Shown one piece after another: positions 14,987 to 22,295 of a stretch of 24,000 bases of DNA (position 1 is its first letter; each line of letters opens with the position of its first letter). The translations under genes were made by a program, and so were the position numbers. The notes beneath the pieces were generated by a model. The model was not told where the DNA came from. It worked only from the letters and a program-made list of their open reading frames with translations, and searched no databases. The DNA is from Plastoroseomonas hellenica (GTDB lineage Bacteria; Pseudomonadota; Alphaproteobacteria; Acetobacterales; Acetobacteraceae): positions 49,688 through 73,687 of the forward strand of contig NZ_JAAGBB010000018.1 in NCBI RefSeq assembly GCF_018129085.1. The letters are read 5' to 3'.

Positions 14987-16133
14987 GGACGCGCCGGTCC
15001 GCAGGGACGGTGCGCAGCCGCTTTCCATCGGCGCCGAAGAGCAGCGCCTCCGGCCATTCGGCGCCGAGCCGGATGGCATCGCCGCGCCGCAGCCCACCGG
15101 CGATGGCGACCGGCAGCTTGGCGACCAGCGGCGCGTCCGGTGCCGCCAGCCGGGCATGCAGCAGCACCTCGGCGCCGAGGAATTCCAGATGCTCCACCGT
15201 CGCCGCCAACCCGTCGCGGGTCAGGCTCAGCGCCTCCGGCCGCAGCCCGAGAGTGAGCGTCGTGCCGGCCGGCGCTTCCGCCAGCATGGGCAGCAGCAGC
15301 GGGCCGACTGCCACACCACTCGGGGTGGCCAGCGCGGGCAGGGTGTTGATGCGGGGGCTGCCGAGGAAGCCCGCGACGCTGAGGTCGCAGGGGTCGTCAT
15401 AGACCTGGCGTGGCGTGCCGAGCTGCAGCAGCTCGCCTTCCATCATCACCGCGACCCGGTCGGACATGGTCATCGCCTCGACCTGATCATGCGTCACATA
15501 GATGGTGGTGACGCCGGCGCGGCGGTGCAGCTCCACGATCTCCCGCCGCGTGCCGGCACGCAGCTCGGCATCGAGGTTGGAGAGCGGCTCATCCATCAGG
15601 AAGGCAGAGGGTTCGCGCACCAGGGCGCGGCCGAGCGCCACGCGCTGGCGCTGCCCGCCGGAGAGCTGCGCCGGGCGGCGCTGCATCAGGTGCCCGAGGC
15701 GCAGCATCTCCGCCGCCTCCCGCACGCGCGTCGCGATGGCACCGCGCCGTCCCGCCTGGCCAGGGACCAGATGGCGCAGCAACGGCAGCCGCTCCAGCGC
15801 CGAGAGCCGGCGCATCACCAGCGGCACGGCCAAATTCTGCTCGACGGTCAGGTGCGGATAAAGCGCGTAGTTCTGGAACACCATGGCGATGTCGCGATCC
15901 GCGGCGCGCAGCCGCGTCACGTCGCGCCCGCCGATGGTGATGCGCCCTGCATCCGCGGTCTCCAGACCGGCGATGATGCGCAGCAGCGTGGTCTTGCCGC
16001 AGCCGGAGGGGCCGACCAGGGAGAGGAATTCGCCCTCACGCAACGCGATGGAGACGCCTTTCAGGACCCGGGTCGCGCCGAAGGTCTTTTCGATGCCTTC
16101 GATCAGGATCTCCCGCCCCGCTTCACGCTGCAT
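14979..16133 (-). CDS. ABC transporter ATP-binding protein (UgpC/MalK-like, with C-terminal regulatory/TOBE-like domain)
   Basis: 384 aa. Walker A GPSGCGKTT, Q-loop MVFQNYALYPHLTV, signature LSGGQRQRVALGRAL, Walker B FLMDEPLSNLD and H-loop TIYVTHDQ. A C-terminal extension of about 130 aa follows, as in MalK/UgpC. Confidence 0.93.
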   Translation of the reverse strand: MQREAGREILIEGIEKTFGATRVLKGVSIALREGEFLSLVGPSGCGKTTLLRIIAGLETADAGRITIGGRDVTRLRAADRDIAMVFQNYALYPHLTVEQNLAVPLVMRRLSALERLPLLRHLVPGQAGRRGAIATRVREAAEMLRLGHLMQRRPAQLSGGQRQRVALGRALVREPSAFLMDEPLSNLDAELRAGTRREIVELHRRAGVTTIYVTHDQVEAMTMSDRVAVMMEGELLQLGTPRQVYDDPCDLSVAGFLGSPRINTLPALATPSGVAVGPLLLPMLAEAPAGTTLTLGLRPEALSLTRDGLAATVEHLEFLGAEVLLHARLAAPDAPLVAKLPVAIAGGLRRGDAIRLGAEWPEALLFGADGKRLRTVPADRRVHA

Positions 16134-16974
16134 CGGGTTGCGCTTTCAGCAGATCGGAATTTGGATAGGCCTCGGCCCGCACCTGGTGGATGAAGGGGCG
16201 TTCCATGCCATCAGGGACGACCAGACTGGTCTCGACATGATCGGCATCGAAGCGGTGCAGCAGGTAGCCGCAGGGCCGGGCGCCGGGCAGGTCCGGCTGT
16301 TCATCCTCGGCGACGATGAAGCCGACCGAAGGCGCCCAGGCAAAGCGTACCGCGCCGCGCGCCACCTCGTGATGCAGGTGCAGGTGGCCGGAGGCGACGA
16401 GGCGGAGCGCCGGATGCGCCAGCAGCGGCAGGAAGGGCGCGCGCGCAAAGGGCGGCACCGACCAGTAATCGAACAGCGGATCATCGGCGGTGGTGACGAA
16501 GACCGGCTTGTGTAGGAACACCGCCAGCCGCCGATCGCCGAGGCTCGCCAGCGCCTCCGCGATGAAATCCGCCTGCGCCACTTCCTCGGGGTGGCCGGTG
16601 CCGCAGACCTGGCTGTTCAGGCCGAGCAGGCGCCAGCCATCCCTGTCCAGCACCCACCGCTCCTGCCCGAAATGCCGGCGGAAGCGCAGCAGCCGTTCCG
16701 TGTCGAAGGGCTGGCGCGGTGCGCGGTCGGGATGGTCGCCGACATCATGGTTGCCCGGCACCGCGAGCACCGGGCGCGGCAGCCGGGCGAAGCTCGCGGC
16801 GGCGAAAGCCATGTCAGCCTCGCTGTCGGCGCCATCGAGGGAGACGTCGCCGCTCGCCACGATGATGTCCGGGATCTCGGCCGCCAGCGCGGCCGCCACG
16901 GCGTCGAAATTCGCGCGGAACAGCGCGGTCCCCGCACCGAGATGCGTGTCGGAGATCTGGGCGAGCGTGAACAT
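16123..16974 (-). CDS. Calcineurin-like metallophosphoesterase (GpdQ/CpdA-like phosphodiesterase candidate)
   Basis: 283 aa. It carries the ordered metallophosphoesterase motifs: ISDTHLG (DxH), ASGDVSLDG (GDxxDxG-like), VPGNHD (GNHD), VFLHKP (H) and ASGHLHLHH (GHxH). It is the first gene of the operon and overlaps the ATPase start by 11 nt. Confidence 0.85.
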   Translation of the reverse strand: MFTLAQISDTHLGAGTALFRANFDAVAAALAAEIPDIIVASGDVSLDGADSEADMAFAAASFARLPRPVLAVPGNHDVGDHPDRAPRQPFDTERLLRFRRHFGQERWVLDRDGWRLLGLNSQVCGTGHPEEVAQADFIAEALASLGDRRLAVFLHKPVFVTTADDPLFDYWSVPPFARAPFLPLLAHPALRLVASGHLHLHHEVARGAVRFAWAPSVGFIVAEDEQPDLPGARPCGYLLHRFDADHVETSLVVPDGMERPFIHQVRAEAYPNSDLLKAQPDAA

Positions 16975-17074: not shown

Positions 17075-18886
17075 CTAGCGGAGCGCGGGATCGGGCGACG
17101 GCGCCGCTTCCATATCCGCGAGCACCCGCGCGACATGCGCGGCGAACAGGTCGACCAGCGCCAGCGCCTCGCTGGCCAGGGCCTCGCCATGGCGACGGAC
17201 CAGGCAGATCTGCCGTTCCAATGGCGGATCGCTGATCGCGTTGATCTGGAGCGCGCCCAATTGCACGGCGCCGCGCAAGGCGCCGAGCGGCAGCAGCGTC
17301 GCCCAGCCACCAGCCCGGACCAGCCGGATCGTCGCGGCGAGGCTGTCGATCTCAGCATCCGGTGCCACGTCCAGCCCGACGCGGGCGGCACCCCGATCCA
17401 CGATCCAGCGCAGCCCGTGATGGCGCGCCGGAAGTGCCAGGCGCAGCCTGGCCAGCATGCCGAGCGGCACCGGGCCCGTTGGCAGCAGGCCGGAGCCCGC
17501 GGCGGTCACGGCGACCAGCGGCTCGCGCGTGATCGGCCGCACCACGAGGCCGGGCTGCACGGCGTCATTGTCGACGAAGGCGCAGTCGATGCTGGAATTC
17601 AGGACCATCCGCCGCAACTCGTCGCTCAGCCCCTCCACCAGGTGCAGGCGTCGGTCGGGGAAGCGCTGGTTCCAGTCCGCGGCGCTGCGCGCCACGACCT
17701 CCGCCAGCAGGCTCATCTCGTCGAGCGCCGGGACGCAGCCGGCGCGCACCTGGCCGCGCGGACGGATGAGGCTGGGCCCGAGGCGGCCGAGATCCTGGAT
17801 GAAGGCCGCCGCCGGCGGTGCCAGCGCGTTGCCGAGCACGGTCGGCGTCAGCCCGTGCGGATGGCGCTGGAACAGGCGTTGCCCCAGCGCCGCCTCCAGG
17901 TGCTGCAATCGCAGGGTGGCAGCGGGCTGGGCGATGCCGAGTTCCCGCGCGGCCCGGGTCAGGCTCGCGTGCCGCCAGGCGGCTTCGAAGCAGTCGAGAT
18001 GCTCCCGCTCGATCGCCGTCGGCCAGGGGACCTGCGCCGGTGGCCGCAGGGCGGCAGCACCGATATGGCGAAGGATGCCGTGGGCCAGGATCGGTTCCAG
18101 GGCGGCCTCCCACGCATCCGCCGTGCCGGCGCTGCCGAGCAATTGCCAGCCGGGGCCGTCGGGCAGCGGCGACAGCAGGCGCAGGGTGGTCCTGCCATCG
18201 CGCAGCCAGCCCGGCAGCAGGAGCGAGGGCAGCAGCACGGGCCGGCGCCAGGGGCGCAGCGCTTCGTCGAGGCGATCCGGCGGCACGCCGAGCGGCACCG
18301 GCGTCAGCCCGCACGCCGCCGCCTGTGCCGCGGCGCCCTGCATCAGGGCAGGGGGCAATTCCGGCAGGCCGACGCTCTCCGCGCCGTCGGTGGGGCCGGC
18401 GAGGACCCAATGCTCGACCAGCCTCCCCGGCCGCTCACAGGCGTCCAGGGTGAAGCCCGCCTGCACCGCGGCGGCACCGGCCGGCAGCGCAAAGACATGC
18501 AGGTGCCGTTGCGGCATCTGCGCGGCGAGCTCGGTTGCGATTACCGCGGCGGCCTCCCGCGCCGGGCAGCCAGGTGCTGCGAGGCGCAGCCCGATCGCCA
18601 GCACCGCCGCAGGCTGCGAGACCCCGGCCGCGATCCGGCGCAGCGCCGCCTCCAGCTCAGCGAGCAGCGGCCTCGCAATGCGCTCGAATTGCCGTCCCGC
18701 GGCCGTCGGCACCAGGCCGCCTGCCTGGCGATCGAACAGCCTGGCGCCGAGGGCTTCCTCCAGCGCGCCGATCTGCACGCTCAGCGTCGCCGGTGCGCGG
18801 CCCATCTGGCGCGACGCGGCAGAGAGGCTGCCGGTATCGAAGGCGGCCAGGGCGCAGCGAAGCTGGCGGATCGTCGGCGGGTGCAG
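17075..18886 (-). CDS. Tandem (duplicated) LysR-type transcriptional regulator: two HTH plus effector-domain modules in one reading frame
   Basis: The frame is open from the TGA at 18893-18895 (minus strand) down to the TAG at 17075-17077. HTH-1 (about 18728-18874) is TIRQLRCALAAFDTGSLSAASRQMGRAPATLSVQIGALEEALGARLFDR. HTH-2 (about 17864-18001) is HLDCFEAAWRHASLTRAARELGIAQPAATLRLQHLEAALGQRLFQR. Each HTH is followed by an effector-domain-sized region of roughly 200-260 aa. The first ATG (18805) falls inside HTH-1. The 5' end given here assumes a CTG start at 18884-18886, preceded by AAGGGGG. The start codon is uncertain. Confidence 0.75.
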   Translation of the reverse strand: MHPPTIRQLRCALAAFDTGSLSAASRQMGRAPATLSVQIGALEEALGARLFDRQAGGLVPTAAGRQFERIARPLLAELEAALRRIAAGVSQPAAVLAIGLRLAAPGCPAREAAAVIATELAAQMPQRHLHVFALPAGAAAVQAGFTLDACERPGRLVEHWVLAGPTDGAESVGLPELPPALMQGAAAQAAACGLTPVPLGVPPDRLDEALRPWRRPVLLPSLLLPGWLRDGRTTLRLLSPLPDGPGWQLLGSAGTADAWEAALEPILAHGILRHIGAAALRPPAQVPWPTAIEREHLDCFEAAWRHASLTRAARELGIAQPAATLRLQHLEAALGQRLFQRHPHGLTPTVLGNALAPPAAAFIQDLGRLGPSLIRPRGQVRAGCVPALDEMSLLAEVVARSAADWNQRFPDRRLHLVEGLSDELRRMVLNSSIDCAFVDNDAVQPGLVVRPITREPLVAVTAAGSGLLPTGPVPLGMLARLRLALPARHHGLRWIVDRGAARVGLDVAPDAEIDSLAATIRLVRAGGWATLLPLGALRGAVQLGALQINAISDPPLERQICLVRRHGEALASEALALVDLFAAHVARVLADMEAAPSPDPALR

Positions 18887-18994
18887 CGCTGAAGCCCCCT
18901 TCGCTCAATCTTATGGCCTTCGTCACCAAACCATATTGGACGCGCCGCCATGCACTGCAACACGCTCGTCATCGGAGAGCGAATGGGGATGGTG

Positions 18995-20614
18995 ATGGCA
19001 CGCAACATCAAGGCCCAGCGGGGTAACCTCCTGCGCTGCAAGGGATGGCGGCAGGAGAGCATCCTGCGGATGCTCGAGAACAACCTCGAGAATGGCGAGG
19101 ATCCCGAGAACCTCATCATCTACACCGGCGCCCGCGCCGCGCGGAGCTGGGCCGATTACGACCGCATCGTCGGCGCGCTGCAGGCGCTGGAGGCGGATGA
19201 GACGCTGATCTGCCAATCCGGCCGCGCGGTCGCGAAGTTCCGGTCCCATGTGCGGGCGCCGCGCGTGGTGATGGCCAATGGCAATGTCTTGGGACGCTGG
19301 GGTACGCCCGATCAGTTCCATGAGCTGGAGCAGAAGGGCCTGACGGTGACGCCGGGCATGACCGCCGCCGCCTGGCAGTATATCGGCAGCCAGGGGATCC
19401 TGCAGGGCACCTACCAGTCCTTCATGGGCGCCGGGCAGCAATTCTTCGGCGGCGACCTGCGCGGCCGGCTGATCCTGACCGCCGGCTGCGGTGGCATGGG
19501 CGGCGCGCAGCCGCTGGCCGGCAAGCTCGCGGGCGCCGCGATCCTGGTCGTCGAACCCTCCCGCGCGCGGATCGAACGCCGTATCGCCAGCGGCTATTGC
19601 GACCGCATCACCGAGGATCTGGAGGAAGCGCTGCGCTGGGTGCTGGATGCCAAGGCATCGCGCAGCGCGCTGTCGGTCGGCCTGGTCGGCAATGCGGCCG
19701 TGGTGCATCCGCTGCTGCTGGAACGCGGCATCTTCCCGGACATCGTCACCGATCAGGTGAACACCGACCCCTATCGCGGCTACATCCCCGCCGGCATGAC
19801 GCCGGAGGAAGCCGCGGCGCTCGCGCAATCCGACCAGGCGGAGCGCAAGCGCCGCGCCGAGGCAAGCCTCATCGTGCATGCGCGGGCGATGCTGGAGTTC
19901 CGCCGCCGCGGCGCCATCGTCTTCGAATACGGCAACGGCTTGCGCCTGCGCACCGCCGATCTCGGCGAGACGGAGATGCTCTCCATGGAGAGCTTCGTCA
20001 CCATGTTCATCCGGCCGCTGTTCTGCGACGGCTATGGCCCCTTCCGCTGGCTCGCGATCTCCGGCGATCCGCAGGACATCGCGGAGATCGACGGCATCGT
20101 GGAGGAGACCTTCTCCCACAACCATTCGATCAACCACTGGATTCCGCTGGCGCGGGAGCATGTGCACTTCACCGGCCTGCCGGCGCGCATCGGCTGGCTC
20201 GGTCATGGCGAGCGCAGCCTGCTGGCGACCAAGGTGAATGAGGCGGTGGCCCAGGGCCGCACCAAGGGGCCGATCGCCTTCACCCGCGATCACCTCGATG
20301 CCGGCTCGGTCGCCAACCCCTTCCGGGAGAGCGAGAAGATGCAGGACGGGTCGGAGGCGATCTCGGACTGGCCGATCCTGAACGCGCTGCTCGCCTGTGC
20401 GAATGGCGCCGATCTCGTCGCCGTGCACTCGCGGGGTGGCTATTCCAATCAATCTGCTGGCCAGACCACGATCGCCGATGGCGATCCGCTGTCGGCGGAG
20501 CGGCTGCGCGCGGTGCTGGATGGCGATACCGGCATCGGCATCATGCGCCATGCCGAAGCGGGGTATGAGCGCGCGCTGACGAACAAGGCCAATTTCGGCC
20601 TGGGCTTCGCCTGA
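18995..20614 (+). CDS. Urocanate hydratase (urocanase) family protein, divergent paralogue in a non-hut context
   Basis: About 539 aa. Alternative in-frame ATGs lie at 18983 and 18989, and the ORF-track ATG is at 18950. Urocanase fold motifs are present: the NAD-binding segment LTAGCGGMGGAQPLAG, QYIGSQGILQGTYQSF, FIRPLFCDGYGPFRW, TRDHLDAGSVANPFRESEKMQDGSEAISDWPILNALL and GIGIMRHAEAGYE. Several motifs that are near-invariant in canonical HutU are altered; see findings. Confidence 0.88.
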   Translation: MARNIKAQRGNLLRCKGWRQESILRMLENNLENGEDPENLIIYTGARAARSWADYDRIVGALQALEADETLICQSGRAVAKFRSHVRAPRVVMANGNVLGRWGTPDQFHELEQKGLTVTPGMTAAAWQYIGSQGILQGTYQSFMGAGQQFFGGDLRGRLILTAGCGGMGGAQPLAGKLAGAAILVVEPSRARIERRIASGYCDRITEDLEEALRWVLDAKASRSALSVGLVGNAAVVHPLLLERGIFPDIVTDQVNTDPYRGYIPAGMTPEEAAALAQSDQAERKRRAEASLIVHARAMLEFRRRGAIVFEYGNGLRLRTADLGETEMLSMESFVTMFIRPLFCDGYGPFRWLAISGDPQDIAEIDGIVEETFSHNHSINHWIPLAREHVHFTGLPARIGWLGHGERSLLATKVNEAVAQGRTKGPIAFTRDHLDAGSVANPFRESEKMQDGSEAISDWPILNALLACANGADLVAVHSRGGYSNQSAGQTTIADGDPLSAERLRAVLDGDTGIGIMRHAEAGYERALTNKANFGLGFA

Positions 20615-21234
20615 TGTACGTCCTGCATGATAGCCGGCTGTCCGGCAATGCCTGGAAGGTGCGGATCCTGCTCTCGCAGCTCGGCCTGCCCTTCCGCCGC
20701 GTCAGCTATGTGCTGCCGGAAGGCCGCACCCGCACGCCGGAATTCCTGGCGAAGAATCCGGTCGGCAAGGTGCCGATGCTGGAGCTGCCTTCGGGGGAGG
20801 CGCTGTTCGAATCGAATGCCATCCTCTGCCACCTGGCGGAAGGCACGCCCTTCCTGCCGGAGGGCCTCGACCGCGCGCGCGTCCTGCAATGGATGTTCTT
20901 CGATCAGTCGGAGGCGCTGAAGGCGCTGGCAGGCGCACGCTTCTGGATCGGCATCGCGAAGAAGCCGGAGGAGAAGGCGGCCGAGATTCCGGTCTGGCAT
21001 GCTGCCGGCAACAAGGCGCTCGGCATTCTCGACGGCCATCTGGCGGCGCGGGATTTCCTGGTGGGAGAGCGCTACACGATCGCCGACCTCGCCAACTTCC
21101 CCTACGTCGCCATGGCGCATGAAGGCGGCTTCGATATGGCGCGCTATCCGAACGTGACGGCCTGGATCGACCGCATCCGCGCCCAGCCCGGCCATGTGCC
21201 GCTGATCCAGGATGACGCGAAGGGAGTGGTGTGA
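20614..21234 (+). CDS. Glutathione S-transferase family protein
   Basis: 206 aa. N-terminal thioredoxin-like domain: SGNAWKVRILLSQLGLPF...FLAKNPVGKVPMLELPSGEALFESNAILCHLAEG. C-terminal helical domain: RARVLQWMFFDQ...YTIADLANFPYV. The start overlaps the upstream stop codon by 1 nt (TGATG at 20612-20616). Confidence 0.88.
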   Translation: MYVLHDSRLSGNAWKVRILLSQLGLPFRRVSYVLPEGRTRTPEFLAKNPVGKVPMLELPSGEALFESNAILCHLAEGTPFLPEGLDRARVLQWMFFDQSEALKALAGARFWIGIAKKPEEKAAEIPVWHAAGNKALGILDGHLAARDFLVGERYTIADLANFPYVAMAHEGGFDMARYPNVTAWIDRIRAQPGHVPLIQDDAKGVV

Positions 21235-22295
21235 TGCGGGTGAAGCTCGATCTCGACGCGCTCGAAGGCGCGGTCCTCGGCGGGCTGGTGCTCTCGGCGG
21301 GCGGCAGCGGCGTGAAGCGCGGCGAGCGCAACCGCCGCATCGGCGAACAGGCGCTGGACTACGGCCCGCTCATGATGGTGACCCTCGACGAGCTGGAGGA
21401 TGACGCCGGCATCATCGTCGCGACTGGCGTCAGCGCGCCCGGCTTCGCCAAGGCGATCACCTCGATGCGCGATTCGATCCAGTCGGCGGAGATGCTGATT
21501 GCCGCGACCGGCGGGGGCAGGCCGGCGGGCGTGATGCCGGGCCATGTGCCGGGGCTGATGGCCTGGATGCAGGCGGCGGTGCTCGGCATCCCCCTGGTCG
21601 ATGCCGCGACCAATGGGCGCGGTCATCCGACGGTGAAGATGGGCGGCATGGGCCTCGCCTCGCGGCCGGAGGTCGCGGTGACCCAGGCCGGCTGCGGCGG
21701 CGCCAGGGATGACCGGGTCGAGATCGTGGTCACCGGCAGCATGGCCAAGACTTCGACCATCATGCGCGCCGCCTCGGTGCAGAATGGCGGCAGCCTCTAC
21801 GCGACTCGCGGGCCCTTCGCCGCAAGCTTCGTCCGCCAGGGCGGCGCGCCGGGCGCAATGAGCTTCGCGACCAATCTCGGCCGCGCCATGCTTGCCAAGC
21901 CGGCTGGCTTCGCCCGGGTGGAGGCGGCCGCTGCCTTCCTCGAGGGCGAGGTGCTGGTCGTCGGCCGGGTCGAGGCCAATGACGTGCGTTACGATGGCGG
22001 CTTCGATGTCGGCCGGGTGGTCATCGCCGGCGATGGCGGGCGCATCACCCTGCATGTCTACAACGAGTACATGGCGGCCGACGCCGACGGCGTTCGCGTC
22101 CGCACCTTCCCGGACATGATGGGGTCCTTCGATCCGGCGACCGGTGCGCCGATCGCGATCAATGAGATGCCGGTGGGCCGCGAGGTCGCCATCGTCTCCG
22201 GCCCGCGCAGCGCCTTCCCGGTCGGCGCCGGCGCCACCGATCCCGCCGTCTTCCCGGAAGTGGAGGAAAAGCTGGGCGTACCGCTCGCCCCCTGA
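21234..22295 (+). CDS. DUF917-like protein (hydantoinase-neighbourhood family); function unknown here
   Basis: 353 aa from the ATG at 21234, with AGGGAG 7 nt upstream. A GTG at 21231 is an alternative start. The N-terminal pattern LDALEGAVLGGLVLSAGGSG...GPLMMVTLDELEDDAGIIVATGVSAP resembles my memory of the DUF917 N-terminal consensus (Gly-rich loop, then ...ELPDD...G.P). The length also fits that family. The call is from memory, not from an HMM. The start overlaps the GST stop codon by 1 nt (TGATG). Confidence 0.5.
   Translation: MRVKLDLDALEGAVLGGLVLSAGGSGVKRGERNRRIGEQALDYGPLMMVTLDELEDDAGIIVATGVSAPGFAKAITSMRDSIQSAEMLIAATGGGRPAGVMPGHVPGLMAWMQAAVLGIPLVDAATNGRGHPTVKMGGMGLASRPEVAVTQAGCGGARDDRVEIVVTGSMAKTSTIMRAASVQNGGSLYATRGPFAASFVRQGGAPGAMSFATNLGRAMLAKPAGFARVEAAAAFLEGEVLVVGRVEANDVRYDGGFDVGRVVIAGDGGRITLHVYNEYMAADADGVRVRTFPDMMGSFDPATGAPIAINEMPVGREVAIVSGPRSAFPVGAGATDPAVFPEVEEKLGVPLAP

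Follow-up and report, generated by a model that had tools for sequence, protein, structure and literature searches.

LysR-type transcriptional regulators (LTTRs) make up the largest transcription-factor family of bacteria. The window analysed here, a 24,000-nucleotide stretch of the Plastoroseomonas hellenica contig NZ_JAAGBB010000018.1, carries on its minus strand an LTTR gene whose single reading frame holds two LTTR modules in series and which lies divergently from an S-methyl-thiourocanate operon. Is this tandem LTTR a working single-chain protein, or two ordinary genes run together? The reading that we favor, with a probability of about 70%, is that its product is a true single-chain tandem LTTR kept up by selection, initiated at a CTG codon and dedicated to regulation of the divergent operon. 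The parts of the gene, each with a winged helix-turn-helix (HTH), a linker helix and an effector-binding domain (EBD) or its counterpart per module, are as follows:

17075-18886, minus strand: complete coding sequence for the tandem LTTR (603 codons and a stop codon; RefSeq WP_281417377.1, Plastoroseomonas hellenica)
18692-18871, minus strand: module 1 winged HTH (HTH1; Pfam HTH_1, residues 6-65, 59.6-63.4 bits)
18629-18703, minus strand: module 1 linker helix (residues 62-86), predicted from AlphaFold2 (AF2) secondary structure
18062-18625, minus strand: module 1 divergent effector-binding-like domain (residues 88-275), with the periplasmic-binding-protein type II (PBP-II)/LTTR-EBD fold in the predicted structure
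18011-18061, minus strand: inter-module linker (residues 276-292), of variable sequence, with no stop or canonical start in the window
17831-18004, minus strand: module 2 winged HTH (HTH2; Pfam HTH_1, residues 295-352, 63-66 bits)
17765-17839, minus strand: module 2 linker helix (residues 350-374), predicted, AF2
17135-17761, minus strand: module 2 canonical EBD (EBD2; Pfam LysR_substrate, residues about 376-584, 109-112.5 bits)

The reading frame and its two modules

The minus-strand frame is uninterrupted from about 18904 to the stop codon at 17075-17077 (translation of 17075-18958). Its 603-aa product is completely identical to WP_281417377.1, and the 576-aa GenBank protein MBR0665871.1, also from P. 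hellenica, matches it exactly from Met28 on. Both entries are annotated merely as 'LysR family transcriptional regulator', so that public records give this protein a generic label and two conflicting lengths. Frame length by itself is no proof of coding here because DNA of 70% GC also yields an antisense frame of 585 aa. Two antisense open reading frames (ORFs) on the plus strand, at 17135-18892 (585 aa) and 17457-18995 (512 aa), overlap the regulator gene; shadow ORFs of this kind are common in such DNA and do not count as evidence for genes. The 603-codon frame is a real coding sequence because it has domain matches, homologs, informative ratios of non-synonymous to synonymous substitution (dN/dS) and a GC content at third codon positions (GC3) of 0.87-0.89 in each segment. 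GC content is lowest at second positions (GC2), the same coding signature as in the neighboring genes.

The Pfam model HTH_1 (PF00126, cut-off 26.6 bits) matches the protein twice. When the modules were scanned apart (module 1, residues 1-292; module 2, residues 293-603), HTH_1 at 59.6 bits was the sole Pfam match in module 1, and module 2 gave HTH_1 at 63 bits and LysR_substrate (PF03466) at 112.5 bits. An earlier note on this DNA, made from the letters alone, had described one minus-strand frame with two full LTTR modules and had expected two matches to each Pfam model. The single frame with two modules is upheld by translation, the two HTH_1 matches, homologs and selection, but LysR_substrate is found only once, in module 2. 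Module 2 is a full LTTR module by sequence and matches full-length LTTR structures end to end, whereas module 1 is one only at the level of fold, and lacks one helix of regulatory domain I (RD-I). Among the models of NCBIfam, those for CynR and NAC come closest to module 2, which stays far under their cut-offs (the best, CynR, at 116 versus 277 bits), and no NCBIfam equivalog model for a named LTTR (CynR, NAC, PcaQ and others) reached its cut-off.

The recognition helices of the two modules are unlike each other and each is conserved (RAPATLSVQI in HTH1, AQPAATLRL in HTH2); in HTH2 the stretch Q320-L327 is unchanged throughout the core family. The HTHs are 41% identical over 58 residues in the window protein and 36% identical on average in the family, and either is 38-39% identical to unrelated single LTTR heads. 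The closest single-module LTTRs to module 2 have just 33-35% identity. To judge from these values the fusion is old, and the comparison favors neither internal duplication nor fusion of two different LTTR genes.

What, then, is the effector-like region of module 1? It is rich in Ala, Pro and Leu and has the conserved motifs PGSPAR, PDRLD and LLPSLLLPGWLR. An AF2 model of residues 88-285, built from a 13-sequence alignment, has an alternating beta-alpha pattern, a mean local confidence (pLDDT) of 91.1 and a predicted TM-score (pTM) of 0.87. In a Foldseek comparison with the PDB this model gave 162 matches at E<=1e-3, the best being the LTTR regulatory domains of CcpE, NodD, OxyR2, CynR, MexT and LrhA (E 2e-6 to 1e-5, TM 0.45-0.58). 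Alignment of the domain with the module 2 EBD by hhalign is collinear over 125-160 columns and weak (E 0.031 and 0.012), and about 17 residues are missing from it at the expected place of the RD-I helix that follows strand 2. As modeled, the domain is an LTTR effector-domain fold that can be recognized at fold level only. Module 1 is accordingly a complete but highly diverged LTTR module, since it combines this fold with a winged HTH and a predicted linker helix.

Relatives and selection

Among 5.8 billion proteins, a word-indexed search picked out ten clusters with 50-99% identity, 94-100% query coverage and lengths of 566-624 aa; the shortest cluster members were cut short by gene callers, owing to the same missing start. 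The layout is shared by at least 12 distinct full-length relatives (581-643 aa as called), which come from independent assemblies and go down to 29% identity; relatives overall span 566-646 aa. Each of the distant members P0011, P0013, P0014 and P0017 (29-50% identical) has two HTH_1 matches and one LysR_substrate match. Scans of genomes and metagenomes for further members gave only a Rubritepida metagenome-assembled genome (MAG) and one contig already known, and a tblastn search of plasmids gave 778 records with LTTR matches, none covering at least 80% of the query. The tandem design is thus rare in the genome and metagenome collections scanned, but conserved. A JGI metagenome protein of 210 aa (P0023) corresponds solely to the effector domain of module 2, at 79% identity, and lacks an HTH; either a fragment or a split gene may account for it.

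Does module 1 occur on its own? A profile of its C-terminal region alone was run with HMMER exhaustively against 1.84 billion representative proteins and gave nine matches at E<=0.001, seven of them real. Six of these, 593-643 aa long, carry the region at residues ~90-300, and the seventh is a 472-aa protein that ends within module 2; the two remaining matches are a repeat protein of low complexity and a fragment of 74 aa. No stand-alone module 1 protein was found among the 1.84 billion representatives. Because all real matches but the truncated 472-aa protein are of the fused type (about 590-646 aa), the module 1 domain exists, among these representatives, solely inside the fused architecture.

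Selection was estimated as dN/dS by the Nei-Gojobori method for eight locus pairs:

HTH1: 0.08-0.23 (0.08 for the window versus L004)
Module 1 domain: 0.18-0.34
HTH2: 0.09-0.17
EBD2: 0.03-0.18

By these ratios constraint is weaker on module 1 than on module 2, yet module 1 is clearly under purifying selection. Two checks proposed in the earlier note bear on this. It had suggested a comparison of the orthologous locus, which in relatives is a fused single gene with no stop codon or frameshift between the modules, and it had named relaxed selection across module 1 as a sign of a pseudogene; this was not seen, all parts being under purifying selection.

Start codon, junction and alternative explanations

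Two features at the 5' end and one within HTH1 bear on where translation starts:

18884-18886, minus strand: probable CTG start, conserved in the three closest loci
18895-18901, minus strand: Shine-Dalgarno-like element AAGGGGG, 8 nt upstream of the CTG, read directly
18803-18805, minus strand: first canonical ATG (Met28), inside HTH1; the GenBank start (576 aa)

The frame that the earlier note placed at 17075-18886 is open throughout, but at 18886 it begins with a noncanonical CTG, a point that its reader missed. Between the upstream stop and ATG 18805, that is, ahead of a complete HTH1, the open frame has no ATG, GTG or TTG. The window and the loci L004 and L005 all keep CTG at the 18886 position with AAGGGG(G/A) 8 nt before it, and this purine run arises from a 5-nt insertion specific to their clade; the more distant L001 and L007 have an ATG one codon upstream of the CTG position. 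Codons 2-27, the 26 codons from the CTG to Met28, show 9-10 synonymous versus 2-4 non-synonymous differences among close relatives. As the resulting ratio of non-synonymous to synonymous differences per site (pN/pS) is 0.09-0.18, these codons are translated. Of the two public annotations, RefSeq (603 aa, CTG 18886) and GenBank (576 aa, ATG 18805), the RefSeq model is on this evidence the better one, with CTG 18886 the likely start.

Neither a stop nor an in-frame ATG, GTG or TTG occurs among the junction codons (about 17990-18140), as the earlier note had said of about 17990-18060. Its further claim, that module 2 cannot be translated separately, holds for the window but not for all relatives, because codon T290 (18017-18019), ACG in the window, is ATG (Met) in a sister P. 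hellenica strain. The junction sequence of that strain, and of P0002, is WPMAIEREHLDCF. The ATG sits exactly at the expected N-terminus of a stand-alone module 2, and the codon is a possible strain-variable internal start.

How far do these data allow readings other than a single-chain tandem regulator? The architecture is rare a priori, and this is all that would favor an assembly or sequencing artefact that joined two ordinary neighboring LTTR genes through a lost stop codon or a frameshift. Two P. hellenica isolates, the Rubritepida MAG and many metagenome assemblies made independently all have the same continuous frame, and this recurrence refutes the artefact in practice; we regard its probability as negligible. 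Module 1 could instead be a decaying, functionless passenger, an upstream LTTR gene fused by loss of its stop codon. Its effector-like region is, after all, compositionally biased and unseen by Pfam, and evolves faster than module 2. Against this, that region is itself under purifying selection, has kept its conserved motifs in relatives down to 29% identity and is predicted to form a compact PBP-II fold with confidence; HTH1 is among the best-conserved parts of the protein, and no member has any disruption of the frame. A passenger is accordingly very improbable.

Two other alternatives concern what is translated. If synthesis began at ATG 18805, HTH1 would be truncated and non-functional, leaving one working DNA-binding head. 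This ATG is the sole canonical start in the open frame ahead of module 2, and it is the one used in the GenBank entries MBR0665871.1 and MBR0643579.1. However, the 26 codons upstream of it are constrained, Met28 is unconserved (it is Leu in L004 and L005), the distant relatives have their ATG ahead of a complete HTH1, and a conserved AAGGGGG precedes a conserved CTG, the start that RefSeq annotates; initiation at 18805 is therefore improbable. Alternatively, the gene could have two products, with initiation at the junction yielding module 2, in addition or even for the most part, as an LTTR of its own (about 310 aa) and the long chain as a minor or regulatory isoform. The sister strain and P0002, with an in-frame ATG at the normal position of an LTTR N-terminus, speak for this. 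The window itself has Thr there, the residue is I, N, S, F or L in all other relatives, the position is not preceded by a purine run of the Shine-Dalgarno type, and module 1 is under purifying selection and never found alone, all of which makes two products unlikely.

The divergent operon, a possible mechanism and known systems

The genes and control elements that face the tandem LTTR gene are:

18995-22295, plus strand: divergent operon of three genes, the probable target (NCBIfam and alignment)
18995-20614, plus strand: S-methyl thiourocanate hydratase (NCBIfam, 974 bits, cut-off 880)
20614-21234, plus strand: glutathione S-transferase (GST), between the hydratase and desulfurase genes
21231-22295, plus strand: S-methyl thiohydantoin desulfurase (S-Me-THD; NCBIfam, 528 bits, cut-off 450)
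18887-18994, no strand: divergent control region, 108 bp, with conserved blocks from an alignment of 6-7 loci
18898-18925: conserved 28-mer, TGACGAAGGCCATAAGATTGAGCGAAGG on the minus strand, reaching the ribosome-binding site
18933-18941: conserved block GTCCAATAT (alignment of 6-7 loci)
18955-18962: conserved block TGTTGCAG (alignment of 6-7 loci)

Genes for S-methyl-thiourocanate catabolism have recently been defined and belong to the methylated ergothioneine type; the gene content here suggests catabolism of an S-methylated thiohistidine-derived compound. A six-locus alignment places the hydratase start at ATG 18995, giving 539 aa as in all homologs; the alternative at ATG 18950, from a mechanical ORF list, was ruled out by that alignment and by the homolog length. 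A gene for an SBP_bac_5 binding protein follows the desulfurase gene. At L004, an 89%-identical relative, the operon continues instead with a gene of the aromatic-amino-acid-lyase family (PF00221, 527-2221), possibly an ergothionase-type lyase, at the position where the window and other loci have the SBP_bac_5 gene. On the other side, a calcineurin-like metallophosphoesterase gene (16123-16974, minus strand) lies 100 nt downstream of the regulator gene, whose strand it shares; L004 has it too, and more distant loci do not.

The earlier note had remarked that the regulator gene diverges from an unusual urocanase-like operon. This is confirmed, and the arrangement with its 108-bp gap is conserved in at least six loci. 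L001, L004, L007, L008 and L010 share it at protein identities down to 43%, L003 and L005 have upstream sequences that align with the control region of the window, and P0014, only 29% identical, adjoins an S-Me-THD/transporter cluster. The tandem LTTR is probably the regulator of the S-methyl thiourocanate operon in Acetobacteraceae. In the control region the three conserved blocks are candidates for overlapping divergent promoters and an operator. TTGCAG-N16-CAATAT is a plausible candidate for the promoter of the regulator gene, overlapping a divergent -10 element on the other strand, and the 28-mer is a candidate operator.

Several results weigh against a CTG-initiated tandem regulator of this operon. 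The GenBank annotation starts at ATG 18805, and the CTG start is one that we infer. A Pfam scan of the approximately 200-aa module 1 domain in ten members gave no match even at E<=10, and an hmmsearch of PDB sequences with two profiles of it gave none either; the hhalign probability for its alignment with the module 2 EBD is just 1.6-3.6%, and its Foldseek TM values are moderate (about 0.5). The full-chain AF2 model is likewise moderate (pLDDT 75.5, pTM 0.61). In the 108-bp control region a scan for sigma-70 consensus promoters gave no match and a search for T-N11-A dyads or repeats no clear dyad.

How might a single-chain tandem LTTR work? The chain runs from the first winged HTH through its linker helix and diverged EBD-like domain, across a flexible linker of about 13-17 residues, to the second winged HTH, linker helix and canonical EBD, and would replace two classical LTTR subunits. 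If each chain stands for two subunits, then a pair of chains would restore the customary assembly with four heads. A pathway metabolite or intermediate may be sensed by the canonical second effector domain, with the degenerate first one serving mainly as a structural or oligomerization partner, and the two types of head may read different half-sites in the control region. Ordinary LTTRs bind as four identical subunits in non-equivalent conformations, which place two pairs of identical heads on two different sites; here the different heads could hard-wire the asymmetry that ordinary tetramers reach conformationally. We put forward as tentative, and rather less likely than its converse, the more specific proposal of a hard-wired asymmetric LTTR, a two-chain pseudo-tetramer with specialized heads and a ligand-blind first effector domain acting as a pseudo-receptor. 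The heads might be specialized for the recognition site and the activation site, or might form obligate hetero-pairs on non-palindromic half-sites. If the first effector domain is ligand-blind, then only two of the four sensor positions would answer the inducer. Such a protein, if real, would make the compact/extended asymmetry among the subunits of LTTR tetramers accessible by separable genetic means. Modules that are covalently joined and evolve separately would also permit their roles to be mutated independently, which is impossible in a homotetramer.

The earlier note supposed that this architecture had not been described. No account of a tandem, double, fused or duplicated LysR protein, or of an LTTR pseudo-dimer or single-chain dimer, was found in the 8 million full texts searched, subscription journals being mostly outside them. 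The PDB matches to the full-chain model are all chains of 272-326 residues, each covering at most half of the model (query-normalized TM-score, TMq<=0.35), and include no solved tandem LTTR. Domain databases contain some proteins with two HTH_1 matches. With classical LTTRs such as CbnR, BenM, OxyR, CcmR, CynR and NAC the window protein shares the winged HTH, linker helix and two-lobed EBD of each module, and divergent transcription from a catabolic operon. Classical LTTRs, however, are one module of about 300 aa whereas the window protein has two modules in 603 aa, its two recognition helices differ from each other, and its first EBD is beyond sequence recognition and without one RD-I helix.

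Homologous clusters with DUF917 (S-Me-THD), GST, Zn-hydrolase and urocanase-like genes occur at L011 and L012, on plasmids of Lichenihabitans and Agrobacterium, where the urocanase-like protein is 59-60% identical to that of the window. The adjoining regulator there is of the IclR family and not an LTTR. Because these clusters use an IclR regulator, the tandem LTTR would be a lineage-specific control of the pathway.

Proteins of the AraC/XylS family have two HTH units in one chain, and single-chain versions of the Arc, TetR and 434 repressors have been engineered. The principle is common to all of these: DNA-reading units are joined covalently, which allows non-identical heads and asymmetric operators. 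The tandem LTTR is also a template for the engineering of biosensors with two different DNA-reading heads. The known examples belong to other folds and families, and the engineered ones are artificial, whereas in the window protein the repeated unit is a whole regulator, with both its DNA-binding and its sensor domain, and has been duplicated in nature, long ago.

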